This document shows, piece by piece, positions 20,313 through 61,664 of a DNA stretch of 64,000 bases (position 1 is the first letter of the stretch; every line of letters starts with the position of its first letter). The DNA is from an uncultured Gammaproteobacteria bacterium (lineage in GTDB: Bacteria > Patescibacteriota > Patescibacteriia > UBA9934 > GWF2-40-263). Under the pieces are notes generated by a model. It worked only from the letters and a program-made list of their open reading frames with translations, was not told the DNA's origin and searched no databases. The DNA lies in NCBI GenBank assembly GCA_964399675.1, contig CAYNRK010000004.1:12715-76714 (forward strand), read 5' to 3'. The position numbers and the translations under genes are program-made.

Positions 20313-21620
20313 CTACTGACAGACGACGTTGAACTCGCCGCTGCCGAGACCACATTCGTTCCAGCGGGCCGAAGTGCAGGTGACCGTCTTGAATTCGTTG
20401 CCACCGGCCTGGGCTCGACCGACGAATGCTGCCACGTGCGTTTCGAACGGTCCTCCGCCTTCCACGCAGACTGCGTCACCGATTTCGTAGTTGGTGTGGA
20501 AGTAGACCTCGCGATTGGACGGGATCTCGAGCGGGATCTCGAGGTTCCAGATCATGAGGTACATGTGCGCTCGCTCCCGCGCCTCATCCAAATCCCGGAC
20601 GAGCGGAAGGTTCACGTACTCTACCCTGTCCTCGTACGGAACTGCCAGGTAGAGCTGGAAGGTTGTGTTGCGTCCCATTGCCCAGCTTGCACCTACCAGG
20701 ATTTCGATCGTGTCGATCGTCACCTGGTTGTACCTGGTCCTGACACGAACCGCCTGGGTGTCCAGACGGTTGTCCACTAGATCACTGCAATTGACCACCT
20801 CGGGCACGATGCGTTCGGGCTGGTCTGTGCAGAGAGCCTTGTTGCAGGGCTCGTTGGGTTCGTTGAGTTCCACACATTCGCCGTCCAGACAGAGACCGCT
20901 TTCACACGAGGAGAAGTCCTGCATTGCGCTGTGCACACATTCGCCGTCTGGCGTGCACCGATCCTGCGTGCACTCGTTGCTATCTCCGCAGTGATCGTTT
21001 CCGGTGCACTCCACGCAGCCGGTTGTTGATACTACTCCTTCGGTCTGTGAGATGCACCACCGTTCGGGCTCGTCACATACTCGAATGAGGTTCTCGCATC
21101 GGTTGTTGATGCAGAAGTACTCGCGACACGGCTCGCCTGTGATTGGGCAGTGACGGTCTTCGGTACAGTCCATGCCCGGATCCTCACCAAAGCAGACACC
21201 TTCCTCACACCGGCCATGCGTACCGCACGGCACGTTGTGGAGCGGGACACTCTCGCACCTACCGAAGTAGTTGCACTTGTCGAACGTGCACGGGTTGTTG
21301 TCCAGGCAATGCATCGGATCCGTGCATTCGATACAGCCCGGAACCTTGGTGTTGTAGGACGCGTGGGGCACGCACCACTCACCCTCGCCACAGAGGACCG
21401 ATGCCCACTCGCATCGGTTGTTGAGGCAGACCGGGATGAGACAGGCGTTGCCAGTCCCGCAGTCCAGATCCTCCCAACACTCGATGTTGGGATCGGTTGG
21501 TTGCGAACCCGCGTCCGTGTCGGAGTACGGAACTCCTGTGAACACGAGTTCACGTGTTCGTGCGTCATCGCATCCCCCGAGGAACACAACGAGCAGGGAA
21601 GCGATCATCAGCTTGTACAT
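20313..21620 (-). CDS. cysteine-rich secreted lipoprotein with Cys-repeat modules (GC-rich island)
   Basis: Signal peptide plus lipobox (..VVFLGGC). Many CxxDxxC / CTxDxC repeats. Strong SD aaggtgg. Composition about 60% GC against the AT-rich flanks. Confidence 0.7.
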   Translation of the reverse strand: MYKLMIASLLVVFLGGCDDARTRELVFTGVPYSDTDAGSQPTDPNIECWEDLDCGTGNACLIPVCLNNRCEWASVLCGEGEWCVPHASYNTKVPGCIECTDPMHCLDNNPCTFDKCNYFGRCESVPLHNVPCGTHGRCEEGVCFGEDPGMDCTEDRHCPITGEPCREYFCINNRCENLIRVCDEPERWCISQTEGVVSTTGCVECTGNDHCGDSNECTQDRCTPDGECVHSAMQDFSSCESGLCLDGECVELNEPNEPCNKALCTDQPERIVPEVVNCSDLVDNRLDTQAVRVRTRYNQVTIDTIEILVGASWAMGRNTTFQLYLAVPYEDRVEYVNLPLVRDLDEARERAHMYLMIWNLEIPLEIPSNREVYFHTNYEIGDAVCVEGGGPFETHVAAFVGRAQAGGNEFKTVTCTSARWNECGLGSGEFNVVCQ

Positions 21621-21824
21621 GTTTCCACCTTTGTGGATGACCGGCCATCGGCCTACCTTTTACGCTCGCGCGTCCGTTTGTCATTGCTGAAAATGACATT
21701 CGGAGGTCAAGATCTCTAAACAATTCAATCAGGTTGGCGCCTAATCAAACAGAGAAACAATATACCAGAAAATTAGGCTTTTGTCAACAGTTCTCGTATG
21801 GTAAAATGAATAAGCTTTTGGAAT

Positions 21825-22505: not shown

Positions 22506-22612
22506 TTGCTGTCATCCCGAGCGAAGGCCCGTCAGACGGGCCGAAGCCGAGGGATCTCGAATATTGCGAGATCTCTCCGCTCGCTTCGCTCGGTCGAGAT
22601 GACATCTAGTAT
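22505..22612. repeat. family-A palindromic element (modules 3 and 4 plus the ggcccgtcagacgggcc submodule)
   Basis: gtcatcccgagcgaag..gagggatctcgaatattgcgagatctctcc..tcgagatgac. Confidence 0.8.
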
Positions 22613-24460: not shown

Positions 24461-24639
24461 AAAAAATTTGAAATTCAAAAGGAGAATTATCAATAAAACT
24501 CAATGTTGTCAATAATACTCATTCAATTTGATTATATCATTGAATTCTCAGCTTAGATACACTCTGGCAATTAAGGAGGTTCAAACGACTAAAACAAAAA
24601 CACCTTCAATTACAGCAAGGGTTTGTTGAGAACAAAAGA

Positions 24640-24690
24640 ATATACTTATAAAATACTTCGCGATCGCGAAGTATTTTATAACAACTTTTC
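24640..24690. terminator. perfect palindrome tacttataaaatacttcgcgatcgcgaagtattttataa (bidirectional terminator-like)
   Basis: Member of the TACTTATA..CGATCG..TATAAGTA hairpin family. Confidence 0.6.
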
Positions 24691-27472: not shown

Positions 27473-27477
27473 AATTT

Positions 27478-27605
27478 TTCCTTTGTCATCCCGAGCGAGC
27501 CCATTCGACTCACTTCGTTCGCTCAGGGCAGGCTCCGCGAGCCGAGGGATCTCGTATATTCGAGATCTCTCCGCTCGGCTGACGCCTCGGTCGAGATGAC
27601 ATTAG
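27478..27605. repeat. family-A palindromic element
   Basis: gtcatcccgagcgagcc..gagggatctcgtatattcgagatctctcc..tcgagatgac. Confidence 0.8.
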
Positions 27606-29677: not shown

Positions 29678-29732
29678 TTAAAAGACGGACATAAGGGTCT
29701 GTTTTTTGTTTGTGATATAATTATTCCTGTCA

Positions 29733-29885
29733 TCTCGACCAAGGCGTTACTTACCCTTGTCATCTCGACCAAGGTGCTACTTACCCTTGTCATCTCGACC
29801 AAGGTGCTACTTACCCTTGTCATCTCGACCAAGGTGCTACTTACCCTTGTCATCTCGACCGAGCGAAGCGAGCGGAGAGATCTTG
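29733..29885. repeat. tandem array of four and a half 30-bp units (ccttgtcatctcgaccaaggtgctacttac) running into a family-A module
   Basis: Direct tandem copies with no spacers. The unit equals the gtcatctcgacc end of family A. Confidence 0.85.
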
Positions 29886-29889
29886 CATT

Positions 29890-30180
29890 ATGGAAGAAAA
29901 ATTTTACTACATTTATATACTTACCAACTCCTCCGAGGCGGTTCTATATGTTGGAGTCACGAATAATTTGATTAGAAGAATGCATGAGCATCAAAATAAA
30001 CTGATAGAAGGTTTTACGAAAAAGTATAACTGTACGAAACTTATTTACTATGAGGTCACCAACGATGTGTACGCTGCGCTAGAAAGAGAAAAACAAATAA
30101 AAAAATGGAATAGAAAAAAGAAGGAACATCTTGTTAATTTAGATAATCCCGAGTGGAAAGACTTGTCAGTCGATTTTTGA
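29890..30180 (+). CDS. GIY-YIG nuclease domain protein (small stand-alone)
   Basis: FYYIYILTN..VLYVGVTNNLIRRMHEH is GIY-YIG with the conserved R and E. The start codon abuts the repeat. Confidence 0.75.
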   Translation: MEEKFYYIYILTNSSEAVLYVGVTNNLIRRMHEHQNKLIEGFTKKYNCTKLIYYEVTNDVYAALEREKQIKKWNRKKKEHLVNLDNPEWKDLSVDF

Positions 30181-30184: not shown

Positions 30185-30535
30185 TCGAGATTTCTCGCGT
30201 AAAGCGACGTGCCACGTAAAAGCTCAAGCACTCTACGTGGTGTGGTCGCCACGCGACTTTGCGTCGGCTTCGCTCGGGATGACAAAAAAGAAATAATTGT
30301 CATCTCGACCGGAGGCCCGTCAGACGGGCCGGAGCGGAGAGATCTCGAATATGCGAGATTTCTCCGCTCGCTGTGCTCGGTCGAAATGACATAATAATAA
30401 TTGGTCGAAATGACATGTATCGGTTGTCATCCCGAGCGAAGCCGAGGGATCTCGAATATTGGAACAACACGATTCGAGATTTCTCCGCTCGCTTCGCTCG
30501 GTCGAAATGACAGAAACGGCACTGACACATAGAAT
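30185..30535. repeat. cluster of family-A modules, including the cgcgtaaagcgacgtg..cacgcgactttgcg palindrome and three gtcat..gatctcgaatat..atgac units
   Basis: Read directly from the sequence. Confidence 0.85.
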
Positions 30536-35139: not shown

Positions 35140-35400
35140 CCACCCAGTGCGTCATTGCGAGGAGGTCAAAGGCCGACGAAGTCGAGCTCAGCTCGACGAA
35201 GCAATCTCCGTGTAGAGTCATACTTTGTCATCTCGACTAAGCGAGCAAAGCGAGCGCACGGAGAGATCTCGCATATTCGAGATCTCTCGCGTAAAGCGAC
35301 GTGGTCGCCACGCGACTTTACGTCGGCAAGCTCGAGATGACATAATAACACGGAGATTGCTTCGGCCCGTCTGACGGGCCTCGCAAAGACGCAAGTGAAC
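35140..35400. repeat. family-A module cluster
   Basis: gcgtcattgcgagg, the acgtaaagtcgcgtggcgaccacg palindrome, and gatctcgcatattcgagatc. Confidence 0.85.
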
Positions 35401-36014: not shown

Positions 36015-37666
36015 GCCAAACATTATATAGAAGATATCGACCGGAAAAGTTTAAGGATATTTCAGGTCAGGAACATGTTGTTAAAACCCTGCAGAATCAG
36101 CTAAAAGCTGGTTCTGTTGCTCATGCATATCTGTTTACAGGGCCACGTGGGATTGGGAAAACCACAATTGCGCGTTTGGTTGCAAAGGCTATTAATTGCG
36201 AGAAAGTAAAAGAAAGCGAGCCATGCGGAAAATGTTCGTCATGTACAGAGATTACTACTGGAAATGCGCTGGATGTTTTTGAGATTGACGCGGCATCTCA
36301 CACTGATGTTGAAAACGTTCGTGAGAACATTATTAAAAATGTTCGATTTGCACCAAACAAGTTGAATCGAAAAGTTTATATTATAGATGAGGTTCACATG
36401 CTTTCAACCTCTGCTTTTAACGCGCTGTTAAAAACACTTGAAGAACCCCCAGAGCACGCATTATTTATTCTTGCAACAACTGAGATTCATAAAGTTCCTG
36501 AGACGATTATTAGTCGTTGTCAGCGTTTTGATTTTGCAAGGATTGACAAAGCAGAGCTTGTTAAGCGAATGAAAAGGATTTTGAAAAAAGAAGGGGTGGT
36601 TGTGGCTGATGATGTGCTTGCAGAGATTGCACGACACAGCGGTGGATTTGCGCGCGATGCGGAAAGCATGCTTGGCCAAGTGCTGGCATTGGGAGAAAAG
36701 GAGATCAGTATGGATCAGGCAATGCTTGTGCTTCCGGCAACCACAGCAATTATTGTTGAACAATTTATTGATTCAATGTTTTCCAAAGGAGCAGGGGAGA
36801 CAATCAAGCTTTTGAATCAGAATCTTGAGCAGGGAGTTGACCTTAAACATTTTTTGGATGATGTTATTTCAAAGTTGCGCGACCAGCTTCTTGAAACTGT
36901 TTCAGAAGGAAAGGCTTTAGTTTCTGTTGATCAGCTTCGGTTTGCAATTGAGAAATTTTTAAAAGCCCGCAGACATATTAATGTTGATCACTTGCCACAG
37001 CTTCCGCTTGAATTGGCTATTGTGGAGATTGTAAGTGAAGGAGCCAGGGATCAGGAGCTGGCTGTCGGGAATAGCACATCTGCGTCATTGCGAGGAGCCG
37101 AGGGCGACGACGTAAAGTCGCGTGGCAACCACGTTGCTTTACGCAAAGCAGTCTCCGTGGAAAAAAAAATTGAAAAATCGGATTTTAAGAAACAGGAGGT
37201 TGATTTGGATATCCAAGAAACACAACCCCTGTCATCTCGACCGAGCGAAGCGAGCGGAGAGATCTCGCATATTCGAGATCTCCCGGCTTCGTCCAACAAC
37301 AGCGAGGCTTTGCTTGAGACAGTACAAGAGGAGACTGTGTTCGATTCCGTCCCAGTCATATCACTCGAGGAAGTCAAAGAAAAATGGCCAACCGTGTTTG
37401 AGCAAATTCAAGAGTGCAATGCATCCTTGCCGTTATTTATGGAGTCCTGTGAGATTTGTGGAGTAAAAGACGATCATGTTGAGCTTGCGTTTGAATACGA
37501 TTTGCACGTTCAGGCAGTGAACAAAGAAAAGAACCGTGTGTTAATTGAAAAGGTGTTGGAAAAGGTTTTGGGTAAGAAAGTTAAGGTGAGGGCTTTGAAA
37601 ACAGAAAAAAAGGAATCAGATTCGGTCAAAGATTTGCTTGAAGAGTTTGGTGGGAGTGTAGTGTAA
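36011..37666 (+). CDS. dnaX: DNA polymerase III subunit tau/gamma
   Basis: YRPEKF..GQEHVV..AYLFTGPRGIGKTT clamp-loader AAA+ module. Carries an in-frame family-A repeat insertion at 37075..37300. Confidence 0.9.
   Translation: MSQTLYRRYRPEKFKDISGQEHVVKTLQNQLKAGSVAHAYLFTGPRGIGKTTIARLVAKAINCEKVKESEPCGKCSSCTEITTGNALDVFEIDAASHTDVENVRENIIKNVRFAPNKLNRKVYIIDEVHMLSTSAFNALLKTLEEPPEHALFILATTEIHKVPETIISRCQRFDFARIDKAELVKRMKRILKKEGVVVADDVLAEIARHSGGFARDAESMLGQVLALGEKEISMDQAMLVLPATTAIIVEQFIDSMFSKGAGETIKLLNQNLEQGVDLKHFLDDVISKLRDQLLETVSEGKALVSVDQLRFAIEKFLKARRHINVDHLPQLPLELAIVEIVSEGARDQELAVGNSTSASLRGAEGDDVKSRGNHVALRKAVSVEKKIEKSDFKKQEVDLDIQETQPLSSRPSEASGEISHIRDLPASSNNSEALLETVQEETVFDSVPVISLEEVKEKWPTVFEQIQECNASLPLFMESCEICGVKDDHVELAFEYDLHVQAVNKEKNRVLIEKVLEKVLGKKVKVRALKTEKKESDSVKDLLEEFGGSVV
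37075..37300. repeat. family-A repeat inserted in frame inside dnaX (about 75 codons)
   Basis: gcgtcattgcgagg..acgtaaagtcgcgtggcaaccacg..gtcatctcgaccgagcgaagcgagcggagagatctcgcatattcgagatctc lies within the ORF and translates as ..SLRGAEGDDVKSRGNHVALR..SSRPSEASGEISHIRDL... Confidence 0.8.
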
Positions 37667-38012: not shown

Positions 38013-38085
38013 ATTATCCTGAATTTTTAAGCGACAAAAAACTGAAACAGGGCAGCGGTAATGTTGTCTGGAAAAATTTCCTAGA

Positions 38086-38142
38086 AAAAAATACTTATAA
38101 AATACTTCTCGATCGAGAAGTATTTTATAAGTATTTTTTTGG
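38086..38142. terminator. 54-bp perfect palindrome (A-tract tacttataaaatacttctcgatcgagaagtattttataagta T-tract)
   Basis: Bidirectional terminator-like. Same family as 24640..24690, 5369..5413 and 54185..54236. Confidence 0.7.
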
Positions 38143-39270: not shown

Positions 39271-39315
39271 CTCACCCTGCGGGGCGCCTACTCTAGGGCG
39301 CCCCGTGTTCGTTTT
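39271..39315. terminator. GC-rich hairpin cggggcgcc-tactcta-gggcgcccc followed by T-tract
   Basis: Bidirectional. Also the 3' end of the minus-strand RimK-like gene. Confidence 0.7.
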
Positions 39316-40207
39316 AAAAATTTATTGAAAATTCGATTATTTTTTTGGCAATGTCTTTGCCGGTAACTTCCTCCAAGGCTTTAAATCCAGGATTGGCATT
39401 TACTTCCAAAACAAGCGGTCCACTTTCAGATCTAATAAGATCAACTCCTGCAATTTCAAGGTTAACTGATTTTGCAACTTTTACTGCAAGTTGTTTTTCC
39501 TGATCTGATAATTCAATTTCTTTTCCTGTTCCACCTGTTGAAGTGTTTGCTCTAATGTCTCCAGAAGACGCTGATCGTTCCATTGCGGCAATTACTTTAT
39601 TTCCAATCACAAACGCACGCACATCTTTTCTTTCTGCCTCTTTGACAAATCGTTGAACAATAATTGGATTGTGATCTCGGATTGCTAAGTATTCAGCAAT
39701 TGGCTGAAAAGTCTCTTTGTCTGGCGCATAAAATACACCCTTACCATGAGTTCCAAATGCAATTTTGATAATCACAGGAAAACCAAGTTGATTTGCAAAC
39801 ACTAAAGCTTGTTCAGGATTTTTTGTGATTGCTGATTCAGGATGAGGAATGTCATTATTTTGAAAATGTAGTAATTGTCTAATTTTGTTTTTTGATAAAC
39901 CAAGATGATGCTTGCTGTTTATCAATTTAAATCCAGATTGATTTAAATAATGAATCGGATGCATGTGCAAGCTTGGCTCTTCAATAAAGTTTGGTCTTGG
40001 AAGAATTACATCAAGTTTTGGAAGTGGTTTTCCATCATAAAGATAACCCCCCCTAACCCCCCCTTGAAAGGGGGGGGAACAAAACAAAAAGTTTGGTTCG
40101 TACAATCGAACTGTTTCATGTCCAAGCTCTTTTGCAGCTTCTTCAAGTCGATCAACACTTGAATATTGCTCCCAGGATTGTTTTGAAATAAGAATTCCAA
40201 TTTTCAT
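39314..40207 (-). CDS. RimK-family ATP-grasp ligase (alpha-L-glutamate ligase-like)
   Basis: ATP-grasp C-terminal half (..AGVDLIRSESGPLVLEVNANPGF..). Contains an in-frame family-C element (..[12 protein letters not shown]..). The track N-terminus 40208..40321 is read-through of a family-A repeat. Confidence 0.7.
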   Translation of the reverse strand: MKIGILISKQSWEQYSSVDRLEEAAKELGHETVRLYEPNFLFCSPPFQGGVRGGYLYDGKPLPKLDVILPRPNFIEEPSLHMHPIHYLNQSGFKLINSKHHLGLSKNKIRQLLHFQNNDIPHPESAITKNPEQALVFANQLGFPVIIKIAFGTHGKGVFYAPDKETFQPIAEYLAIRDHNPIIVQRFVKEAERKDVRAFVIGNKVIAAMERSASSGDIRANTSTGGTGKEIELSDQEKQLAVKVAKSVNLEIAGVDLIRSESGPLVLEVNANPGFKALEEVTGKDIAKKIIEFSINF

Positions 40208-40325
40208 ATTATTTCTATATGTCATCTCGACCGGAGACCCGTCTGACGGGCCGGAGCGGAGAGATCTCGAACACGAATATGCGAGATCCCTCGACTCACT
40301 GTCGTTCGCTCGGGATGACACAGTG
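40208..40325. repeat. family-A palindromic element
   Basis: gtcatctcgaccggagacccgtctgacgggccggagcggagagatctcgaacacgaatatgcgagatccctcg..gggatgac. Confidence 0.8.
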
Positions 40326-44032: not shown

Positions 44033-44130
44033 TCACCCCCCTCTTTTTGCGTCTTTGCGAGCCCCCTTTCGCGGAAAGGGGCGAAGCCCGTCCGAACGGC
44101 CGCAAGGCCGGGCGGGCAATCTCCGTTGAG
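44033..44130. repeat. GC-rich family-A variant (gcgtctttgcgagccccctttcgcggaaaggggcgaagcccgtccgaacgg..)
   Basis: Module 1 plus a cccctttcgcggaaagggg hairpin. Confidence 0.6.
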
Positions 44131-44245
44131 AACTATGTAGGACAGTCACGTTGTATAATTTCGGCAGACTCGCTTCGCTCGTGCTGGCGAAATTATACAA
44201 TATACCTGTTGATGGCGTCCTGGAGGTTCGTTGGAGGATTGTGGG
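44131..44245 (+). repeat. family-B repeat (about 110 bp), copy 1
   Basis: gacagtcacgttgtataatttcggcag..ctggcgaaattatacaa..cctgttgatgg..ttcgttggaggattgtg. Near-identical to 45412..45530 and 56521..56635. Confidence 0.85.
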
Positions 44246-44462
44246 GGACAGTCATGTTGTTTCACATGCACACAGGAAAAATTTTCTTGCTGCGGAACTC
44301 GTGCTCTTTGTTGTTTATTTTAAAGGTAAGCACTCAGACAGTCCTCGCTGCAAAAATTTTCCCTGTGTGCATGTGAAACAAATCCGAGGGCATTATTAAA
44401 TAGAAAAACCGCCAGAGCTTTCAGTGAAAGATGGCGATCTGATTGCTTGCTGAGTTCGTGGC

Positions 44463-45296
44463 CTAGGCCGCGAGCGGGAAGCGGTCGTGAAGGAGCTTCA
44501 TGGCGTTGAGCCCGATGAGTGCGGCTTCTTCGTCGCCGGTGACCTCGAACGTGTTGGTCTGGCGATTGCCGTAGATGGCGTTGACCGAGCCGGCCCAGTA
44601 GCCGCCATGGGTCATGCACCAGACGTAGATCGTTGCCGACTCCATGGAGTAGAGCAATACACCGCGTTGGGTCAGCTCGTCGTGGAGCATTTGCAAGCGC
44701 GGAGGGATGTAGCCCATGTCGTCCGGTCGTGCCTGGCCTTCGTTGAAGCACGTGGTTGTTGCCTCAATGCCGACGTGGTGCGGCAGGCTGAGAGTCTCGG
44801 CAGCCTCGATGAGCGCAGCGATCACTCGGTGGTCAGCGAATGCAGGATACTCGATCGGCGCCCAGTTGGTGCTGGCGCCATCCAGTCGAACAGCCCCGCT
44901 TGCGATGGCTGATTCACCGACGTTCGGCTCTCTCTGGAGCGTGGAGCATGAGCCCACACGGATAAAGCGCTCTGCTCCCGAACGCACTGCCTCGGGCAGC
45001 ACAATGCCCGTGGATGCGCTGCCCATGCCGGTTGTGACCACAGACATGGGAACGCCCTGGAATTCGCCGGTGAAGCTCCTGAGCCCCCGGTGATCACCGA
45101 CCTTGATCGCCCCGGGACCGAAGAAGCGGCTCACCAACTCCTCAGCATCCTTGATCGGATCTGTTCCGGCGATCAGCTCTGCCCGTTCGGGTGAGCCCAC
45201 CAACAGGCAGTGGGGCGCCAGATCGTGTGCGTCTGTGTGGAGATGGTATTGCTTGCCACCTGCAGAGGTTGGGGCGTCAGCCTTTCTATCGCTCAT
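44463..45296 (-). CDS. nucleoside phosphorylase, PNP/UDP family 1 (purine/uridine phosphorylase-like), GC-rich island
   Basis: ..HCLLVGSPERAELIAG.. N-terminal fold and ..TGMGSASTGIVLPE.. segment typical of PNP_UDP_1. Confidence 0.7.
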   Translation of the reverse strand: MSDRKADAPTSAGGKQYHLHTDAHDLAPHCLLVGSPERAELIAGTDPIKDAEELVSRFFGPGAIKVGDHRGLRSFTGEFQGVPMSVVTTGMGSASTGIVLPEAVRSGAERFIRVGSCSTLQREPNVGESAIASGAVRLDGASTNWAPIEYPAFADHRVIAALIEAAETLSLPHHVGIEATTTCFNEGQARPDDMGYIPPRLQMLHDELTQRGVLLYSMESATIYVWCMTHGGYWAGSVNAIYGNRQTNTFEVTGDEEAALIGLNAMKLLHDRFPLAA

Positions 45297-45411
45297 GAAA
45301 CCCTCCTGGTTTCGCAGAGGTTCAAAAACAAAAACCGTTCGTATATTTACAACGGTTTAAGTGTTCTGTCAACCATGTCGCTTTATACGAAGCAATCTCC
45401 GGGAGACTTTT

Positions 45412-45530
45412 GGGGGACAGTCACGTTGTATAATTTCGGCAGACTCGCTTCGCTCGTGCTGGCGAAATTATACAACGTACCTGTTGATGGTGGCTTGGGG
45501 GTTCGTTGGAGGATTGTGTGAGTGCGGGTG
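45412..45530 (+). repeat. family-B repeat, copy 2 (direct repeat of copy 1)
   Basis: Over 90% identity by eye. Confidence 0.85.
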
Positions 45531-45576: not shown

Positions 45577-47433
45577 ATGACCGATCAAAAGCAAATTCGG
45601 AATTTTTGCATTATTGCACACATTGATCATGGTAAGTCGACCCTTTCGGATCGGCTTCTTGAATTTACCGGCACAGTTGAAAAGAGAAAAATGCAAAATC
45701 AGATTTTGGATACAATGGAGCTGGAAAGGGAGAAAGGAATTACAATAAAGCTTGCGCCGGCAAGGATGGAGTATGACTACACACCAATAACCCCCCCTAA
45801 CCCCCCCTTGAAAAGGGGGGGAACTTACGTTCTCAATCTAATTGATACTCCGGGTCATGTTGATTTTAATTATGAAGTTTCTCGATCATTGGCAGCTGTT
45901 GAGGGCGCAATACTTTTAGTTGATGCAACTCAAGGTGTGCAAGCGCAAACCATTGCAAATCTTTTTTTGGCCATTGAAGAGGATTTAGAAATTATCCCTG
46001 TTCTTAATAAGATCGATCTTCCGGCAGCAGATGTTCCAGCACGAACAAAAGAAATTGTGAAACTTATTGGATGTGATCCAAAAGAGGTTTTGGCTGTAAG
46101 TGGAAAAACAGGCGAAGGTGTTGAAGCGCTTCTTGATGCAATTGTTAAGCGCATTCCAGCACCAAAAGGAAATACAGATGCGAATCCTCGAGCTTTGATT
46201 TTTGATTCTTTTTATGATGACTACCGTGGAGTCATGGCTTATATTCGCATGGTAGATGGTTTGCTTGAGAAAGGTTCAAAAATTGAAATGATTGGAACAA
46301 GTGCGCGCGCTGAAGTGTTGGAAATAGGGGCTGTTACTCCAAATGGACTAAAACCAAGTCCTGAATTTTCAACCGGGCAAATCGGTTATGTTGTCACAGG
46401 GCTTAAAGATATTTCCGCATGTCGAGTTGGTGATACTATAACTTCGGGAACCCCCCCTAACCCCCCCTTGAAAAGGGGGGGAACGTCACCGCTTCCGGGC
46501 TATAAAGATGTAAAGCCAATGGTTTTTGCTGGAATGTTTCCGCAAGAAGGTAATGACTTTCAAAAGTTAAGAGAAGCAATTGAAAGGCTAAAATTAAATG
46601 ATTCAGCGTTGATTTATGAACCAGAACACTCACCGGCGCTTGGTTATGGATTTCGGTGTGGGCTTTTGGGAATGTTGCATTTGGAGATTTTAAAAGAACG
46701 ACTTGAGCGTGAGTTTAATTTGGAACTTGTTGTTACTGTTCCATCAGTTGCGTATCAGGTTCATCAGCGTTCCAAAGAAATGATTATAATCAAGAGTCCG
46801 CTTGATCTTCCGGATCCGTCACATATTGATTTTATTGAAGAGCCATGGGTAAAATTAGATATTGTTACACCAACGGATTATGTTGGTGCTGTAATGCAGT
46901 TGGTGCAGGATAGGCGCGGTACTTACAAGAACACAGAATACCTTTCTGAGAATCGGGCGATTTTGCATTACGAGATTCCGCTTTCAATGATCATTGTTGA
47001 TTTTTACGATAAACTTAAAGGAGTAACAGCCGGATACGCATCAATGAATTATGAGGTCATTGATTATCGTGAAGCAAATGTTGTGCGTATGAATATTTTA
47101 GTGGCTGAGGATACTGTTGATGCGTTTGCTACACTTGTCTATCGAGATGAGGCGGATAAGGCTGGACGGAGAATTGTGAAGTCACTTAAAGAATCAATTC
47201 CGCGAGCAAACTTTGTAATCAAACTGCAAGCCGCTGTTGGTGGTAAGATTGTTGCAAGTGAAAGAATTTCCGCAGTTCGAAAAGACGTGACTGCAAATTT
47301 GTATGGAGGTGACGTAACACGGAAGCGCAAACTGCTTGAAAAGCAAAAGAAAGGAAAAGCTAAAATGCTAGCTCATGGAAAAGGAAAGGTAAATATTCCA
47401 ACGAATGCATATTTGAATGTTTTAAAAAGATAG
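45577..47433 (+). CDS. lepA: elongation factor 4
   Basis: FCIIAHIDHGKSTLSDRLL G1 motif and LepA-specific C-terminal domain. Two in-frame family-C insertions (PPNPPLKRGGT) at 45789..45825 and 46449..46485. Confidence 0.9.
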   Translation: MTDQKQIRNFCIIAHIDHGKSTLSDRLLEFTGTVEKRKMQNQILDTMELEREKGITIKLAPARMEYDYTPITPPNPPLKRGGTYVLNLIDTPGHVDFNYEVSRSLAAVEGAILLVDATQGVQAQTIANLFLAIEEDLEIIPVLNKIDLPAADVPARTKEIVKLIGCDPKEVLAVSGKTGEGVEALLDAIVKRIPAPKGNTDANPRALIFDSFYDDYRGVMAYIRMVDGLLEKGSKIEMIGTSARAEVLEIGAVTPNGLKPSPEFSTGQIGYVVTGLKDISACRVGDTITSGTPPNPPLKRGGTSPLPGYKDVKPMVFAGMFPQEGNDFQKLREAIERLKLNDSALIYEPEHSPALGYGFRCGLLGMLHLEILKERLEREFNLELVVTVPSVAYQVHQRSKEMIIIKSPLDLPDPSHIDFIEEPWVKLDIVTPTDYVGAVMQLVQDRRGTYKNTEYLSENRAILHYEIPLSMIIVDFYDKLKGVTAGYASMNYEVIDYREANVVRMNILVAEDTVDAFATLVYRDEADKAGRRIVKSLKESIPRANFVIKLQAAVGGKIVASERISAVRKDVTANLYGGDVTRKRKLLEKQKKGKAKMLAHGKGKVNIPTNAYLNVLKR

Positions 47434-47534
47434 TATGAAAAAGAAAACAAAGTTCCGAATCTTTTGGGGTGTTGTTGGGGGAATGGTGATCATCAGCATG
47501 GTCATGTTTACGGTTGCTATTGGTTTTGGGCTCT

Positions 47535-47615
47535 AGTTGTCATCCCGAGCGAGGCGCAGCCAAGCCGAGGGATCTCGCATATTCGAGATTTCTCCGCTCG
47601 CTGTGCTCGGTCGAA
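47535..47615. repeat. family-A palindromic element
   Basis: gtcatcccgagcgaggcgcagccaagccgagggatctcgcatattcgagatttctcc..tcgaaatgac. Confidence 0.8.
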
Positions 47616-49355
47616 ATGACAAAAAGAATGCAGTGGCGTGTTGCTGAGAAAATTTTAGAGGAAATCAAAAAACAGTTTCCGGAGATTGATCCGGCTGTTT
47701 TGCAATTATTGTTTAATCGCAACATTAAAACACAAGAAGAGATTGATGTTTATTTAAGTCCGGATTGGAGCCGAGACACTTTTTCACCTCATCTGTTTAA
47801 CAACATGAGTGAGGCGATCAAAAGAGTGTTTGATTCACTTGAGGCCGGTGATGTTATTACTGTTCATGGAGATTATGATGCAGACGGCGTATGCGCTTCG
47901 GCAATTCTAATATCAACACTTAAAGAAATTTGTCGAGAATTTGATTTTGATAAATTAAAAATCACTTCATATATTCCGCATCGCGAAAAAGAGGGTTATG
48001 GCATGTCTGTGGAAACGATTGAGCATCTTCATGAACACGACAAGACAAAACTTGTAATTGCTGTTGATTGCGGAATTAGCAACAAGCCGGCGGTTGATCG
48101 CGGAAAAGAACAGGGAATGGATACGATTATTTGTGATCACCACACAATGCCGGAAGAATTACCTGATCAAGCAATTCTGATTCATCCGTTGGTTCCAGGT
48201 GAAAAGTTTCCAAACAAGCATCTTTGTGGCACAAGTGTGGCGTTTAAGCTTGCAAGCGCTTTGTTGGATGAGGCGCGAACACGCGGGGCATCGTTTCCGG
48301 CGGGTTATGAAAAGTGGCTTTTAGATTTGGTTGCAATCGCAACTGTGACAGATGTTATGCCGCTAACAGGAGAGAATCGTGTGCTTGAAAAGTATGGTCT
48401 TTTGGTTTTGAATAAAACACGAAGAAAAGGCATTCAGAAACTTATTGATATTGCAGGTTCAAAAAAGGGCAAGCTTGATACTGTTTCGATTGGTTTCCAA
48501 CTTGGTCCTCGGATTAACGCAGCCGGAAGAATGACGCATGCCAATGAGGCGCTTGCGCTTATGGTTGAGGAAGATGATTTGCAAGCAACAAAGTTTGCAA
48601 TGCAATTGAATGATCGAAATAAAGAACGACAAGCAGCTTCTCAACAAATGTATTTGCAAGCAAAAAAACTTGTAAAAGACCCTGGCGATCAAAAGTTGTT
48701 GATTGTGTGTCAACAAGGTTGGCCAGCAGGGCTTGTGGGTTTGGTTGCCGGAAAGCTTGTGAATGAGTTTCATGTACCAACGTTTGTTGTTGGACAAGAT
48801 GGTGAAAAATTTGTTGGCTCAGGTAGGAGTATTAAAGGATTTGATATTACAAAGGCCATGCATGCAGCATCGGAACATCTTGATCGATTTGGTGGACATC
48901 CGGAAGCGTGCGGCTTTTCAACCACTGGTCAGGATCGATTTGAAAAAGCAAAAAGTGTAATGCTTGAATATGCTCAAACACAGATTAAAGATGAAATGCT
49001 TTTGCCAATCCTAAATATTGACGCAGAAATTGATTTTAAAGATGTTACATGGGATTTGCAAAAAGAGCTTGAAAAGTTTGAGCCATTTGGTAAGGGGAAT
49101 CCGCAGCCGATTTTTGCCAGCAAACAAGTTGAGGTTGTAGACAAAAGATATGTTGGGGCTGATGGAAAACATTTACGACTGACGGTTCGTTCACCGCGTG
49201 GTACCATAATGAAAATGATTGGGTTTCGATTTGGTGAAATGTTTGATCAACTCGAAATCGGAAAACCAATAGACGTTGCTTATGAGATTGGTGTTAATGA
49301 GTGGAATGGTAATAGGGAATTGCAATTAAAGATTGTGGATATTAAATTGAGGTAG
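47616..49355 (+). CDS. recJ: single-stranded-DNA-specific exonuclease
   Basis: DHH motifs (VHGDYDADGVCA; CDHH), DHHA1 and an OB-fold C-terminus. Track start 47514 is repeat read-through. Confidence 0.85.
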   Translation: MTKRMQWRVAEKILEEIKKQFPEIDPAVLQLLFNRNIKTQEEIDVYLSPDWSRDTFSPHLFNNMSEAIKRVFDSLEAGDVITVHGDYDADGVCASAILISTLKEICREFDFDKLKITSYIPHREKEGYGMSVETIEHLHEHDKTKLVIAVDCGISNKPAVDRGKEQGMDTIICDHHTMPEELPDQAILIHPLVPGEKFPNKHLCGTSVAFKLASALLDEARTRGASFPAGYEKWLLDLVAIATVTDVMPLTGENRVLEKYGLLVLNKTRRKGIQKLIDIAGSKKGKLDTVSIGFQLGPRINAAGRMTHANEALALMVEEDDLQATKFAMQLNDRNKERQAASQQMYLQAKKLVKDPGDQKLLIVCQQGWPAGLVGLVAGKLVNEFHVPTFVVGQDGEKFVGSGRSIKGFDITKAMHAASEHLDRFGGHPEACGFSTTGQDRFEKAKSVMLEYAQTQIKDEMLLPILNIDAEIDFKDVTWDLQKELEKFEPFGKGNPQPIFASKQVEVVDKRYVGADGKHLRLTVRSPRGTIMKMIGFRFGEMFDQLEIGKPIDVAYEIGVNEWNGNRELQLKIVDIKLR

Positions 49356-49378
49356 ATACCGAACGTCCCCCTTTTCAA

Positions 49379-49475
49379 GAAATACTAACCACCCCTAACC
49401 CCTCCTTGAAAAGGAGGGGAATAATGCATGTCGGTTGAAAGTTCTCCCCCTTTTTAAGGGGGAGTTAGAGGGGGT
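49379..49475. repeat. family-C palindromic element (aaccacccctaacccctccttgaaaaggaggggaa) plus second hairpin tctccccctttttaagggggag
   Basis: Direct repeat of 49852..49892. The same core sits in frame inside lepA, ligA, pilD and the RimK-like gene. Confidence 0.85.
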
Positions 49476-49488
49476 TATGATTTTGGAT

Positions 49489-49848
49489 ATGTATAACGAA
49501 CTTTTCAATAAAAAAGAAAAGAAAACTTTCAGACAAAAATTACGAACTGATCCAACAGCAGCAGAAAAACAGTTGTGGCCACATCTGCAAGGTAGACAAA
49601 TAGAAGGATTGAAGTTTCGGCGTCAGCATGGAATCGGAAAGTATGTCGTCGATTTCTATTGTCCTGAAATCAAACTTATTATAGAGGTTGATGGTGATTC
49701 ACATTTTGAACCTGGAGCTCAAGAAAAAGATGTTGAACGAGAGAGAAGTCTTATTAATAGTGGTTTTCGAGTTTTGCGCTTTACCGATCGTGACATTTTT
49801 GATTCGATGGAAGATGTGATTGAAATTATAAAATCAAATTTATACTAG
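49489..49848 (+). CDS. DUF559 / Vsr-like (PD-(D/E)xK fold) endonuclease-domain protein, copy 1
   Basis: ..KFRRQHGIGKYVVDFYCPEIKLIIEVDGDSH..RVLRF.. pattern of the very-short-patch-repair-like DUF559 family. Start set after the repeat-derived 18 codons. Confidence 0.7.
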   Translation: MYNELFNKKEKKTFRQKLRTDPTAAEKQLWPHLQGRQIEGLKFRRQHGIGKYVVDFYCPEIKLIIEVDGDSHFEPGAQEKDVERERSLINSGFRVLRFTDRDIFDSMEDVIEIIKSNLY

Positions 49849-49851
49849 AAA

Positions 49852-49892
49852 TACTAACCACCCCTAACCCCTCCTTGAAAAGGAGGGGAACT
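49852..49892. repeat. family-C palindromic element
   Basis: gaaatactaaccacccctaacccctccttgaaaaggaggggaa. Confidence 0.85.
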
Positions 49893-49903
49893 TTCCAAAA
49901 ACT

Positions 49904-50302
49904 ATGAAACTAACTATTTTTACTGACGGTGGTTCAAGAGGGAATCCCGGACACGCGGCTTCTGCTGCTGTGTTAAAAAATTCTGCTGGAGAAACAGTTG
50001 CAACCGTATCAAAGTACCTTGGTAAAACAACAAACAACCAGGCTGAATACACTGCAATTGTTTTGGGTCTTCAAAAAGCAAAGAAAATGAAAGCCACAGA
50101 AGTGCAGGTTTATATGGACTCAGAACTTGCTACAAAACAGCTCAATGGTCAGTACAAGGTGAAGAATCCCGGTATTGCTGAGCGGTTTTTGGAAGTTAAA
50201 AATCTTATGCACGCTTTTAAACGTGTGAAGTTTTCACATGTAAGACGTGAAAAAAATAAGGAATCCGATGCTTTAGTAAACAAAGTTTTGGACGAATTGT
50301 GA
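49904..50302 (+). CDS. rnhA: ribonuclease HI (small RNase H-like)
   Basis: IFTDGGSRGNPG..TNNQAEY..D(S)..D catalytic DEDD arrangement. Confidence 0.75.
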   Translation: MKLTIFTDGGSRGNPGHAASAAVLKNSAGETVATVSKYLGKTTNNQAEYTAIVLGLQKAKKMKATEVQVYMDSELATKQLNGQYKVKNPGIAERFLEVKNLMHAFKRVKFSHVRREKNKESDALVNKVLDEL

Positions 50303-51963: not shown

Positions 51964-52734
51964 ATGACACTCTTCATACTTTTTCTTTTAGGAATTTGTG
52001 TGGGGAGTTTTTTAAATGTTGCGATTTTTAGAGCGCATGAAGACGAGAAGTTGCGTGGGCGTTCAAAGTGCATGAAATGTGAGATTCCAATCGGTGCTAA
52101 AGATTTGGTGCCGGTTTTAAGCTACTTGTTGCTAAAAGGTAGGTGTAGAAATTGCAAACAAGTTTTCTCATGGCAATACCCAGCAGTTGAGCTTGCAACC
52201 GGATTGCTTTTTATAATTCCCCCCCTTATCAAGGGGGGGTTAGGGGGGGTTAGCTTTGATTTATTGCCGATCCTAATCCGCGACTGGGTTTTCATTTCTT
52301 TTCTAATAATCATTTTTGTTTACGATCTAAAGCACATGTTGATTTTGGATCGTTTTACAATTCCAGCAATGATATTTGCTTTGATCGCAAACCTTTGGAT
52401 TGGAATCATTCCAGCATGGTTATTGTTGCTTGGGGCAGTTGTGTTAGCAGGATTTTTTTACATTCAGTTTTTGATTTCAAAAGGCAAATGGATTGGAGGG
52501 GGAGATATTCGACTTGGAGCACTCATGGGATTTATGCTTGGACTCCAGTATGGATTGGTTGCTTTGTTTTTAGGATATGTATTTGGTGCTGTGTTTGGTT
52601 TGATTTTGATGGCGCTTAATAAAGCCAATAAAAAAACAATGATTCCTTTGGGAACATTTTTAACCATTTCAACGCTCATAACTCTTTTTTACGGGCACAA
52701 CATTCTTGATTGGTATTTAGGGTTTTTCGTCTGA
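51964..52734 (+). CDS. pilD: prepilin peptidase (A24 family)
   Basis: N-terminal CxxC..CxxC zinc module (CMKC..CRNC) and a polytopic A24 domain. In-frame family-C insertion at 52218..52253 (..PPLIKGGLGGV..). Confidence 0.8.
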   Translation: MTLFILFLLGICVGSFLNVAIFRAHEDEKLRGRSKCMKCEIPIGAKDLVPVLSYLLLKGRCRNCKQVFSWQYPAVELATGLLFIIPPLIKGGLGGVSFDLLPILIRDWVFISFLIIIFVYDLKHMLILDRFTIPAMIFALIANLWIGIIPAWLLLLGAVVLAGFFYIQFLISKGKWIGGGDIRLGALMGFMLGLQYGLVALFLGYVFGAVFGLILMALNKANKKTMIPLGTFLTISTLITLFYGHNILDWYLGFFV

Positions 52735-52740: not shown

Positions 52741-52890
52741 ATGTCCCCCTTTTCAAGGGGGACTACAGGGGGTTAGCATTTCATAAGCATAACCACCCCT
52801 AACCCCTCCTTGAAAAGGAGGGGAATAATGCATGTCGGTTGAAAGTTCTCCCCCTTTTTAAGGGGGAGTTAGAGGGGGTTAGCATTTTGA
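52741..52890. repeat. family-C element cluster (gtcccccttttcaagggggac; aaccacccctaacccctccttgaaaaggaggggaa; tctccccctttttaagggggag)
   Basis: Paralogous to 49379..49475. Confidence 0.85.
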
Positions 52891-52892: not shown

Positions 52893-53252
52893 ATGTATAA
52901 CGAACTATTTAATAAAAAAGACAAGAAAACTTTTAGACAAAAATTACGTACTGATCCAACAGCAGCAGAAAAGTTGTTATGGTTGCATTTGCAGGGTAAG
53001 CAAATGGAAGGATTAAAGTTTCGGCGGCAGCACGGAATCGGAAAGTATGTCGTTGATTTCCATTGTCCTAAAATTAAACTTGTTATTGAGGTTGATGGTG
53101 ATTCGCATTTTGAATCAGGAGCTCAGCAAAAAGATTCCGAACGAGAGCAATATCTAATCAACAAAGGTCTTCGAGTTTTACGGTTTACTGATCGTGACAT
53201 TTTTGATTCGATGGAGGACGTTGTTGAAATTATTCAATCAAACTTATACTAA
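52893..53252 (+). CDS. DUF559 / Vsr-like endonuclease-domain protein, copy 2
   Basis: About 90% identical to copy 1 at protein level (alignment by eye). Confidence 0.7.
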   Translation: MYNELFNKKDKKTFRQKLRTDPTAAEKLLWLHLQGKQMEGLKFRRQHGIGKYVVDFHCPKIKLVIEVDGDSHFESGAQQKDSEREQYLINKGLRVLRFTDRDIFDSMEDVVEIIQSNLY

Positions 53253-53285
53253 CCACCCCTAACCCCTCCTTGAAAAGGAGGGGAA
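53245..53285. repeat. family-C palindromic element
   Basis: tactaaccacccctaacccctccttgaaaaggaggggaa. Confidence 0.85.
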
Positions 53286-53456
53286 GAATGCGAGATCTTC
53301 AATCAACTATTGACATTTTAGTCTTTTTTTGTTAATTTATTTTTCTCTTTGCCACAGTGTTTAGTGCACCAACTTGATGCCTTAAACGTTGTGGCAAAGG
53401 GCGCTGCTTGCGCATATCGCGTAGGAGTTTGTTGGTTGCCATGGCAAAGGAACACA

Positions 53457-54044
53457 ATGGCTGCAAGTATTGGTCAGGCATTGGAGCTCATGACAAAGCT
53501 CGCAACAGCAGTCCCGTGGGGCGAGCTGGACAAACAGTTCGTTCAAGGTCTCATCGCTGACCCAGAGATCGGTTCTGAGTTCGTCTACTTCCTTCGAAAC
53601 TGGGGCGGGTCGGTCGTCGGTGAGCAGATCATCGACCTCGAAGTCAATCCGTTCATTCCGGATGGTTCTGAGATCTGCCCCAAGGACCAGATCGACAGCA
53701 GCGTTTGCGGCAAGTTCATCTTCGACCCCGATCAGATCGAGCTACATCTCGATTCGGGTCAGGAAGACGAGGAGTCGATCCAAGGCTATGACCTGCGCAG
53801 AGCCCTTGAGGGTCAGCCGGTTTTGCCCGCACATGTTCTCGACTTCCTGCTCGAGAACCCGCACTTCATCCCGGAGAGCTGGGAGGACAAGGGGGTGTTC
53901 TTCTGGGGCACCATCTACCGCTGCTCGGGCGGCAGCCTGTATGTCCGTTGCCTCCGCTGGCGCGGTGCTAGGTGGTGCTGGCGCTACGGCTGGCTTGGCG
54001 ATCACTGGGGCTCCGACGATCCTGCTGCGGTTTCCGCAAGCTAG
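53457..54044 (+). CDS. hypothetical protein (GC-rich island)
   Basis: ORF in a roughly 60% GC block. Preceded by TTGACA-like promoter elements and a 5' hairpin ctttgccacag..ctgtggcaaag. Confidence 0.45.
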   Translation: MAASIGQALELMTKLATAVPWGELDKQFVQGLIADPEIGSEFVYFLRNWGGSVVGEQIIDLEVNPFIPDGSEICPKDQIDSSVCGKFIFDPDQIELHLDSGQEDEESIQGYDLRRALEGQPVLPAHVLDFLLENPHFIPESWEDKGVFFWGTIYRCSGGSLYVRCLRWRGARWCWRYGWLGDHWGSDDPAAVSAS

Positions 54045-54184
54045 GATCTGGGAATCTGGAGCTCTGGTTACTAAGCTCTTTGAACTCTTGACTCCTAGCT
54101 CTCAACGGCCAATCACACTCGTGAACGGTCGTTTTTCAATTTAATTATTGATTTTTAAATTATCGAAAAACTTTTTAGAAAAAA

Positions 54185-54236
54185 TACTTATACCATTCGT
54201 GACGATCGTCAGTTTTGGTATAAGTATTTTTTAGTA
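54185..54236. terminator. perfect hairpin acttatacca..tgacgatcgtca..tggtataagt flanked by A-tract and T-tract
   Basis: Third copy of the 5369/5948 element. Confidence 0.7.
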
Positions 54237-54323
54237 TCCAATAAACAGCTTGCTGTTATAGTTACAAATTGTTGGCAATAATTTTTTGTTTTTTTCGTTT
54301 TCTCAACAAGTTTTTTGTGTTAA

Positions 54324-56348
<2,025 letters not shown>

Positions 56349-56379: not shown

Positions 56380-56520
56380 CTTCATCCTGTGTCATTGCTC
56401 TCCCCTGCGTCGTTGCGAGCCCCCTTTCGTGAAACGGGGCGAAGCAATCTCCGTAAAGAATTCCCTCGTGTCCTGCACCTTGTGTCATTGCGAGCGAAGC
56501 GAAGCAATCTTCGTAAAGAA
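56380..56520. repeat. family-A module cluster
   Basis: gtcattgc..gcgtcgttgcgagccccctttcgtgaaacggggcgaagcaatctccgt.. repeated twice. Confidence 0.8.
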
Positions 56521-56635
56521 TTATGGGGGACAGTCACGTTGTATATAATTTCGGCAGTACTCGCTTTGTTCCGTGCTGGCGAAATTATATACAACGTACC
56601 TGTTGATGGCAGACTGAGTGTTCGTCGGAGGATTG
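56521..56635 (+). repeat. family-B repeat, copy 3
   Basis: gacagtcacgttgtatataatttcggcag..ctggcgaaattatatacaa..cctgttgatgg..ttcgtcggaggattgtg. Confidence 0.8.
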
Positions 56636-56656
56636 TGGATTTTTTTAAATAGATTT

Positions 56657-61658: not shown

Positions 61659-61664
61659 ATCTGT

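Follow-up and report, generated by a model that had tools for sequence, protein, structure and literature searches.

We analyzed a 64-kb stretch of DNA, hereafter the window (64,000 nucleotides of contig CAYNRK010000004.1, assembly GCA_964399675.1), from a relative of Candidatus Uhrbacteria in the candidate phyla radiation (CPR)/Patescibacteria. A 36-bp palindromic segment that lies in frame within its gene for a RimK-family alpha-L-glutamate ligase was identified as a member of a dispersed hairpin repeat, which we designate family C. We consider it probable, with a likelihood of roughly 80%, that these 36 bp are a solo copy of a mobile hairpin element resembling the repetitive extragenic palindromes (REPs) that survives in loops of host proteins that tolerate it; with less confidence, we propose that DUF559 nucleases drive its spread. 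Family C forms the inverted ends of cassettes of ~0.45 kb that encode only a DUF559 nuclease. The initial annotation of this DNA had recognized the palindrome in RimK and missed two things, namely that the family is pan-bacterial and that it is tied to DUF559 nuclease genes.

The RimK element, AACCCCCCCTAACCCCCCCTTGAAAGGGGGGGGAAC, occupies 36 nt at positions 40045-40080 of the plus strand and comprises AA, C7, TAA, C7, TTGAAA, G8, and AAC. The first C7 run (40047-53) precedes a stem whose arms are the second C7 run (40057-63) and the G8 run (40070-77), with TTGAAA as the loop; this hairpin has a folding energy of about -18 kcal/mol. Because the gene is read from the minus strand, the element is translated in reverse orientation in the RimK frame and supplies 11 residues between a cysteine and a tyrosine. 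The initial annotation had placed the palindrome at 40046-40082 in the same minus-strand open reading frame (ORF); the palindrome is real and lies in that ORF, but the earlier version contained one C too many (eight instead of seven in the first run), and its coordinates were shifted by one to two bases. Its description of the segment as an in-frame, reverse-oriented member of a repeat family, and as the fifth coding insertion in 64 kb, agreed with our results.

A 20-mer core of family C matched 14 positions in the window (at most 3 mismatches), whereas no match was obtained in any of 100 dinucleotide-preserving shuffles. In these 64 kb, which constitute our sample of the source genome, family C is represented by 12 copies. 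Five of them are 36-nt copies of the all-C ("C7") subtype that differ from one another by 0-3 bases, and all five are located inside ORFs (RimK, LepA twice, LigA, and prepilin peptidase A24). The seven remaining copies are more diverged and all intergenic, and four of these seven carry a compensatory stem change in which C-to-T is matched by G-to-A. The family-C unit consists of a C-rich tail, TAA, and a C/G stem of 7-9 bp with a TTGAAAA loop (consensus AACCNCCCCTAACCCCNCC-loop-GGNGGGGAA). Its length equals exactly 12 codons; three of its six frames are open, and all three are used in actual host genes.

The host gene (39314..40207, minus strand; 297 aa, ATG at 40207) was assigned through Pfam, TIGRFAM, PDB, alignment, and AlphaFold evidence. 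Its product matched PF08443 at 8e-49 (166 bits; cut-off 21), TIGR00768 with 223 bits (cut-off 143), and the structure of Escherichia coli RimK (PDB 5zct) at 1.7e-41. Every column that is invariant in an alignment of 30 RimK sequences, the window gene included, is intact in this protein, and the gene therefore looks functional.

Comparison with homologues supported the earlier view that the RimK segment is inserted rather than native. The closest homologues (58-60% identity) read NFSL-CGD-ELLYDGK at the insert site, where the alignment places eleven residues of the window protein opposite approximately three, a net gain of eight. From LYEP to PLP, the window protein has 31 residues; among the 120 closest homologues, this stretch measures 23 or 27 in 99, and 112 lack an insert in this loop. 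In the AlphaFold model (mean predicted local distance difference test score 89), the insert (residues about 43-54) is coil, bounded by strands 40-42 and 55-57, and the scores of the two blocks of 10 residues spanning it are 70 and 77. As modelled, the insert is a longer, disordered tip of a beta-hairpin, implying no new function. The RimK protein, insert included, was identical on 12 public contigs from JGI, ENA, NCBI, and Logan assemblies; samples that contain this organism include JGI 3300009374 and ENA ERZ23499079.

We give next to no credence to a native origin of the segment, or to an artefact of assembly or sequencing at the homopolymers. Natural loops rich in proline and glycine do occur, and homopolymers are error-prone; nevertheless, 0 of 100 shuffles gave a match, five copies no more than 0-3 of 36 nt apart are present in unrelated genes, homologues lack the segment, 12 contigs from the JGI, ENA, NCBI, and Logan assemblies encode the insert, and related copies are present in isolate and complete genomes. 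On the basis of the shuffles, the near-identical copies, the homologues, and the 12 contigs, we excluded this explanation.

The sister copies in the window were also compared with homologues of their host genes. LepA contains two plus-strand copies that are identical at 36/36 nt. The copy at site 1 (45789..45824) encodes an 11-residue peptide in a beta-hairpin of the G domain, with a net gain of 10 residues relative to Aquifex LepA, and the copy at site 2 (46449..46484) yields a net gain of 7 relative to Aquifex LepA and about 10 relative to insert-free Uhrbacteria LepA. In the NAD-dependent DNA ligase LigA, the C7 copy (54815..54850, plus strand) encodes an 11-residue peptide, with a net gain of 7 over E. 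coli LigA. The copy in prepilin peptidase A24 (52216..52251, minus strand) encodes PPLIKGGLGGV between the A24_N and Peptidase_A24 domains, with a net gain of 8 over a syntenic relative (L199). Outside the two elements, none of 28 prolines in the window LepA is encoded by CCC. The LepA site-1 element has orthologous copies in three other Uhrbacteria (L199, L200, and L201); at identical residues, third codon positions matched in 8/9, 4/8, and 8/9 cases within the element, compared with 36%, 35%, and 28% in the remaining gene. Judged from these sequence comparisons, the inserted segment is foreign to its host genes and constrained at the DNA level.

We analyzed the hairpin across the family alignment. 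In total, 98.6% of the alignment cells pair; double-sided stem changes numbered 145 compared with 33 in shuffles, with 0 of 500 shuffles reaching the observed value, and the stem covariation score was 0.37 compared with at most 0.13 when the partners were slid. Because the alignment was fitted to the structural model, these values lean towards structure. The family-C stem is maintained through compensatory changes. Family covariation was used instead of fold z-scores, which carry no information on the all-C copies, whose C and G runs survive dinucleotide shuffling. In the Rfam search of the window at the gathering threshold, tRNAs alone passed and no family was obtained for the repeat; a permissive scan of 49300-49950 gave no score near the gathering thresholds. 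An intrinsic transcription terminator was rejected: the hairpin is followed not by a T run but by AAC/AAT in plus orientation and by TTAGGGG in minus orientation.

The G7-TTA-G7 sequence of the all-C copies (for example at 52233-52249 and on the minus strand of 40047-40063) matches the pattern G3-N1-G3-N3-G3-N1-G3 and is a candidate three-tetrad G-quadruplex. An i-motif would be possible on the C strand of these copies, and the quadruplex would compete with the hairpin. The cosmopolitan CCACCCC/CCCCTCC subtype of family C is without quadruplex potential.

Each insertion brings three tracts of 7-8 identical bases into its host gene. These tracts (C7, C7, and G8) might act as a contingency switch through slippage phase variation or as a G-quadruplex or i-motif regulator, and G7TTAG7 on the G-rich strand would fit the three-tetrad motif. 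We nevertheless regard this explanation as very improbable. Its hosts include ligA, a gene that is essential in bacteria studied so far; the 12 public contigs carry exactly the same in-frame RimK protein; tract lengths vary among orthologous copies while the frame is kept; and the cosmopolitan subtype has no long homopolymers.

Two genes for DUF559 proteins (Vsr-like PD-(D/E)xK nucleases) in the window are bracketed by family-C copies. DUF559 gene 1 (49477..49848, plus strand) is located between RecJ and RNase H and was assigned by PF04480 (1.5e-32), PDB 3hrl and 3r3p, and synteny. Its cassette has a left outer repeat of the cosmopolitan subtype (AACCACCCCTAACCCCTCCTTGAAAAGGAGGGGAA; 49387..49422, plus strand), followed by an inverted C5-type copy directly upstream of the start (49444..49476, minus strand), whose second G-run occupies the would-be ribosome-binding site, and a copy just past the stop codon (49856..49891, plus strand). 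The second cassette contains DUF559 gene 2 (52893..53252, plus strand), which shares 85% amino acid identity with gene 1. Its left outer repeat (52791..52826, plus strand) forms an inverted doublet with a C5-type copy at 52744..52774 (minus strand); an inverted C5-type copy lies upstream of the gene (52848..52880, minus strand), and a further copy (53251..53286, plus strand) overlaps the stop codon, TAA, which is the first TAA of that element. Each gene has an inverted copy upstream of its start, a direct copy at or overlapping its stop, and a further direct copy upstream.

The two proteins matched PF04480 with 112 and 110 bits (cut-off 20.6). Residues D59, E70, D72, and H76 are invariant in the DUF559 alignment and represent the conserved acidic and His residues of the predicted nuclease core. 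The closest structure was 3hrl (5.8e-25), and a more distant match was the Vsr-like homing endonuclease I-Bth0305I (3r3p). A gene of the IS200 type or for a REP-associated tyrosine transposase (RAYT) between the flanking copies was ruled out, the ORFs there being DUF559, and no Y1 or other transposase was detected among the window ORFs scanned, those of the GC-rich islands included.

The RecJ-RNase H spacer contains no DUF559 gene in the syntenic relatives L199, L200, and L201. In L199 (GCA_016205995.1, 7270-7383), a gene-less inverted doublet was observed where the window has the DUF559 cassette: the end of RecJ runs into an inverted family-C copy (CCCCTCCTTTTTAAGGAGGGGTTGGGGGTGG), and a direct C5-type copy follows 27 nt later. 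Since the RecJ ORF enters the inverted copy, the element supplies its last codons and stop.

To follow family C beyond the window, we scanned for CCNCCCCTAACCCCNCCTTGANNNNNNGGG, using one genome per species, and obtained at least 113 loci. DUF559 genes were present at four of these element-selected loci, all within 70 bp of an element, and when the ORFs within 600 bp of the 113 listed copies were clustered, no recurrent neighbour besides DUF559 appeared. For the converse test, we selected 80 metagenomic loci solely by the presence of a DUF559 relative (43-56% identity), closest to the element-associated queries. A C-arm hairpin with perfect pairing over 6 bp or more occurred in the 130 nt upstream of DUF559 in 60 of 77 loci and in the 100 nt downstream in 46 of 73, compared with 2 of 89 control windows. 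Scored as inverted repeats, the left and right ends of one locus had a median of 19 compared with 11 between loci (p = 9e-11). The nearest upstream copy was inverted in 38 of 48 DUF559 loci, and the nearest downstream copy was direct in 40 of 45. At many of the 80 loci, the left end places its G-run a few bases ahead of the ATG, at the would-be ribosome-binding site; at many, too, the gene stops at the TAA or TGA with which the right end opens. The same layout was observed in isolates, on plasmid pAQ6 of Picosynechococcus PCC 7002 and on a Photobacterium replicon.

The at least 113 family-C loci are distributed over Abditibacteriota, Armatimonadota, Bacteroidota, Gammaproteobacteria, Nitrospinota, Cyanobacteria, Ignavibacteria, Acidobacteriota, and several CPR groups, although the taxonomy labels of metagenome-assembled genomes may be wrong for some loci; isolates and complete genomes are included among the loci listed. 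Complete genomes with the core include Abditibacteriota IAD-21 (AP024152.1), Crocosphaera WH 8501, and Nitrospinaceae OZ250172.1. Among the matches listed, the 35-nt core AACCACCCCTAACCCCTCCTTGAAAAGGAGGGGAA is almost invariant and the flanks are lineage-specific. No copy of the family-C core was detected in viral contigs. Copies lying in frame were identified in Pfam-supported genes for cyanobacterial Type ISP/Eco57I enzymes, a Bacteroidota N6 methylase, a CPR DnaX, a DHFR-like protein, and a prepilin peptidase; the cyanobacterial, Bacteroidota, and CPR genes include copies inside domains. Within the same set of listed matches, 11 of the 12 verified coding copies are of the all-C subtype, and 11 of 15 all-C copies lie in ORFs compared with 1 of 112 copies of other subtypes (Fisher p = 7e-12).

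Three cyanobacterial Type ISP/Eco57I genes (L037, L078, and L089) contain several different palindromic in-frame inserts coding for proline and glycine in each large ORF, including a repeated PLPQGEGRMLPSPPA. Defence genes seem to be frequent hosts of palindromic inserts.

We propose that DUF559 nucleases recognize and nick the hairpin ends and so drive copying to new sites, a step for which our confidence falls somewhat short of even odds. According to this scheme, the ends would spread as whole cassettes, as gene-less inverted doublets, or as single ends, through nick- or break-primed copying from another copy, and a few target bases would be lost per event. Intragenic copies would survive only where length, frame, and a loop that accepts proline and glycine coincide. 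More tentatively, DUF559 and its hairpin ends could constitute an undescribed pan-bacterial class of minimal selfish elements of ~0.45 kb, whose 36-nt single ends are mobile and whose all-C subtype is specialized for coding genes and re-inserts at the same codons in different lineages (the RimK hairpin tip, two LepA loops, and the prepilin peptidase linker).

The association between nuclease and hairpin might also have the opposite meaning, with the hairpins as targets of DUF559. A free-standing homing endonuclease would then invade inverted doublets at their centre, and the hairpins would spread otherwise, through an unseen transposase, a RAYT-like enzyme, or host recombination or replication slippage; the RimK copy would owe nothing to DUF559. 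Gene-less doublets with a spacer of 9-27 nt at the place where DUF559 would lie (L028, L032, L059, L070, and L199) are consistent with this explanation, and so is the relationship of the DUF559 fold to the known homing endonuclease 3r3p. Among the matches listed, moreover, most element copies have no DUF559 gene nearby, and the ORF-borne subtype differs from the subtypes that flank DUF559 in the window. We consider the homing explanation possible but unlikely. No other recurrent neighbour gene was found at the 113 listed loci, and no Y1 or other transposase in the window ORFs scanned. The left and right ends also co-vary within a locus, although insertion into a palindromic doublet would yield the same result.

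We further investigated whether family C recurs at the same codons of homologous genes. Four RimK genes (that of the window and those of L205, L206, and L001; 51-55% identity) contain family-C elements that agree in codon position, orientation, and frame, and each carrier has its own variant of stem, spacer, and loop. At the same RimK codon, other Uhrbacteria carry an unrelated palindrome of the type that we call family A, encoding CHPERSEGS; its presence points to a hot or permissive site rather than to common descent. In LepA, four lineages have an element at site 1 and two at site 2. A quick neighbour-joining tree shows these carriers dispersed, and repeated gain, repeated loss, and recombination at site 1 all fit this distribution. 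The prepilin peptidase of another genome (L047) contains an element at the same inter-domain point as the window gene. Recurrence at the same codon may reflect repeated hits, old insertions kept current through gene conversion, or recombination.

At site 1 of the LepA alignment (about residues 66-85 of the window protein), the turn is very short in most Uhrbacteria (MEHK-GH), and all element carriers share extra residues before the insert that are not part of the element (YDYTPI, YEYTTVA, and YEYSPKA). The carriers therefore gain ~17 aa relative to sister sequences, more than the element alone accounts for. By their sequence, these extra residues hint at loop exchange by recombination or at recurrent deletion.

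A single ancient insertion per site, kept similar through gene conversion or selection on the hairpin and with its loop or RNA co-opted for translational pausing, mRNA stability, or a protein loop, might likewise explain the shared codons. Such an origin would be consistent with copies that coincide in codon and frame among four RimK genes, among four LepA genes at site 1, and between two at site 2, with synonymous sites that are far more conserved in the element than in the gene, and with the observation that each copy bears the subtype of its own genome. However, the carriers of the LepA element are scattered in the quick tree, the 112 of 120 RimK homologues without the insert would require many precise losses, unrelated family A occupies the identical RimK codon, and the insert is predicted to be disordered. 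We therefore disfavour this explanation as improbable; it is not exclusive of either role proposed for DUF559.

Several observations weigh against the proposal of a mobile hairpin spread by DUF559. A single old insertion, instead of repeated mobility, could account for the same-codon copies of distant homologues. An empty-site allele of the window RimK was sought and none was found, the 90% cluster containing only the same protein with three start calls, and the 12 contigs that carry it showed no variant neighbourhood; since the protein does not vary among its public copies, mobility in this lineage is deduced from comparison and not seen. No target-site duplication can be demonstrated, as the AAC/AAT at both ends may be the element's own. 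The unit is 12 codons long, but the net gain at host sites is 7-10 codons, and thus one to four native codons seem to have been lost per site. DUF559 is nearby at only 4 of the at least 113 element loci, which places most copies far from any nuclease gene, and the difference between the ORF-borne all-C subtype and the subtype flanking the two DUF559 genes of the window counts here as well. No biochemical activity of stand-alone DUF559 proteins is reported in the literature that we found.

The RimK gene is preceded by a copy of family A (TGTCATCTCGACCGG...GGGATGACA; 40220..40325, no strand assigned), which was identified by repeat search and fills the spacer between Dus and RimK. The ORF track extends the gene upstream to a GTG at 40321 (40208..40321, minus strand), and the initial annotation had asked whether this N-terminal extension is read-through of the repeat. 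We found that it is, and that the extension is spurious and non-coding. In RimK homologues whose N-terminus is complete, the first residue is the Met of MKIGILI, and the public gene calls for the identical gene are discordant, at 297, 303, and 335 aa. The 114-nt extension has a G+C content of 54% compared with 35% for the RimK gene and overlaps the family-A repeat, whose segment 40220-40271 is 96% identical to 30298-30349.

Family A is a GC-rich palindromic repeat of ~100 nt with the ends TGTCATC(C/T)CGA...TCGAGATGACA and the core GAGATCTCG, and at least ten copies are present in the window. They are located at 2694-2762, 8792-8860, 22510-22608, 27477-27581, 29841-29910, 30298-30516, 35228-35298, 37224-37294, 40220-40325, 47531-47625, and 60462-60554. 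A tandem array of about five 30-nt units (TACTTACCCTTGTCATCTCGACCAAGGTGC) derived from the left end of family A occupies 29718-29867. In other Uhrbacteria (P0086/L207 and P0058), the RimK loop contains family-A-type elements translated in frame (CHPERSEGS...), as the LepA of P0142 probably does too, and family A is found beside family-C cores in the Nitrospinaceae loci L028 and L070.

The window contains further features. Two tRNA-like Rfam matches (32 and 40 bits; 13429-13501 and 15706-15778) bracket an ORF for a PPDK_N/PEP-utilising enzyme (13444-15582) and coincide with the two copies of a direct repeat, 105 nt in length and 72% identical (13445-13549 and 15722-15826); the pair may be a tRNA gene duplicated by insertion. 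Islands with a G+C content of 50-57% in a genome of ~39% were observed at 44036-45521, 20250-21700, 53300-54150, and 60400-64000. Between the beta-CASP gene and LepA, the island carries a gene for a PNP_UDP_1 phosphorylase on the minus strand (44463-45296). Direct repeats of 116 nt, 91% identical to each other, lie on either side (44128-44243 and 45403-45518), and part of a third copy is located at 56504-56637. The syntenic L199 lacks this island, and 72 nt separate the two flanking genes there. An AT-rich family of palindromes centred on CGATCG (e.g., ACTTATACCAACCGTGACGATCGTCAGTTATGGTATAAGT) was found at 5366-5427, 5942-6003, 24636-24689, 38085-38138, and 54178-54239, in all cases between genes; its members may be terminators or another repeat family.

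We compared family C with known systems. An in-frame palindrome in a gene is a known kind of thing, because intragenic REPs and Rickettsia palindromic elements (RPEs) precede it. REPs of the GTAG and CGTC types occur inside uvrA, recB, DNA ligase, and other genes, in some cases with two in one ORF or at a site shared by related species; RPE-4 and RPE-6 have been equated with REPs; and the enzyme that moves CGTC REPs without RAYT was left open (Di Nocera et al. 2013, PMC3733652). Similar to family C, REPs and REPtrons (PMC3733652; Bertels & Rainey 2011, PMC3116915) comprise a stem-loop of 20-40 bp with a stem of 6-9 bp and a short conserved tail. They likewise occur as singlets and inverted doublets, form subfamilies with compensatory stem changes, flank a small nuclease or transposase gene as inverted copies, and in a minority of cases lie in frame inside genes. 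In size and dispersal, family C corresponds to REPs, with 36 nt, a stem of 7-9 bp, 12 copies in 64 kb, and doublets (52744-52826; L199, L028, L032, and L070). However, its tag is (T)AAC...TAA, with no GTAG or CGTC in the consensus, and the partner is DUF559, whereas that of REPtrons is RAYT (HUH/Y1, IS200-like). Many REP families are species-specific, whereas one family-C subtype is nearly identical across many phyla; unlike REPs, another, the all-C subtype, is almost confined to ORFs.

The RPEs of Rickettsia (Ogata et al. 2000, 2002, as related in PMC10969869) resemble family C in being in-frame palindromes in many unrelated housekeeping genes, and host proteins are judged able to accommodate their insertions in both fold and function. 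Similarly, all five coding copies of the window lie in frame, each at a loop or inter-domain site. RPE-1-type elements measure roughly 100-150 bp, occur only in Rickettsia, and are not known to have a partner enzyme; family C, at 36 bp, pan-bacterial, and linked to DUF559, is set apart from them by description. Family C also differs from RPEs in having GC-only stems in an AT-rich CPR genome. What differs from REPs and RPEs is the tag, the DUF559 partner, the near-identity of one subtype across phyla, and an all-C subtype restricted to ORFs.

The Vsr/DUF559 clade of PD-(D/E)xK nucleases includes one proven homing endonuclease, I-Bth0305I (Steczkiewicz et al. 2012, PMC3424549; PDB 3r3p and 3hrl). 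The gene bracketed by family C encodes a member of this clade, but I-Bth0305I resides in a phage group I intron, whereas the DUF559 genes described here are free-standing between hairpin inverted repeats, with no intron. We found no paper linking DUF559 or Vsr-like nucleases with flanking palindromes in a full-text search of incomplete coverage, which is absence of evidence only, and a full-text search for the element sequence returned nothing relevant.

Two further categories were rejected. [quoted passage not shown] Integron attC sites, found beside an integron integrase or within an attC array, are imperfect palindromes of 57-141 bp with R''(RYYYAAC)...R'(GTTRRRY) cores and extrahelical bases, whereas the unit here is a perfect hairpin of 36-41 nt, and no integrase was present among the window ORFs scanned. 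The symmetric family-C copies L089 and L111 contain CCCTAAC...GTTAGGG, but the attC-like cores and the layout of an ORF plus a palindrome are a resemblance only.

The small dispersed repeats (SDRs) of Nostocaceae, attributed to Elhai and colleagues in 2008, are reportedly hairpins of 21-27 nt, below the usual MITE size, that were proposed to be mobile themselves, and they are reported only from Nostocaceae. SDRs are not known to have a nuclease partner or to reside habitually in ORFs. By description, they resemble family C as very small hairpin repeats of proposed mobility. The mitochondrial GC clusters of yeast are short, GC-rich, palindromic mobile clusters in an AT-rich genome and lie occasionally in frame (var1); they differ from family C in being organellar, in their unrelated sequences, and in their different presumed mechanism.

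These findings have several implications. A near-identical 12-codon unit spans CPR bacteria, cyanobacteria, Bacteroidota, and Gammaproteobacteria. Its copies lengthen LepA, LigA, DnaX, and restriction enzymes and create false N-terminal extensions, for which gene callers and alignments should be prepared. That copies recur at identical codons of distant homologues raises the question of whether very short elements are targeted or whether each protein offers only one or two truly permissive sites. The bracketing by hairpins provides a testable function for a very large family named as a domain of unknown function and makes DUF559 a testable candidate for the enzyme that moves REP-like hairpins without RAYT.

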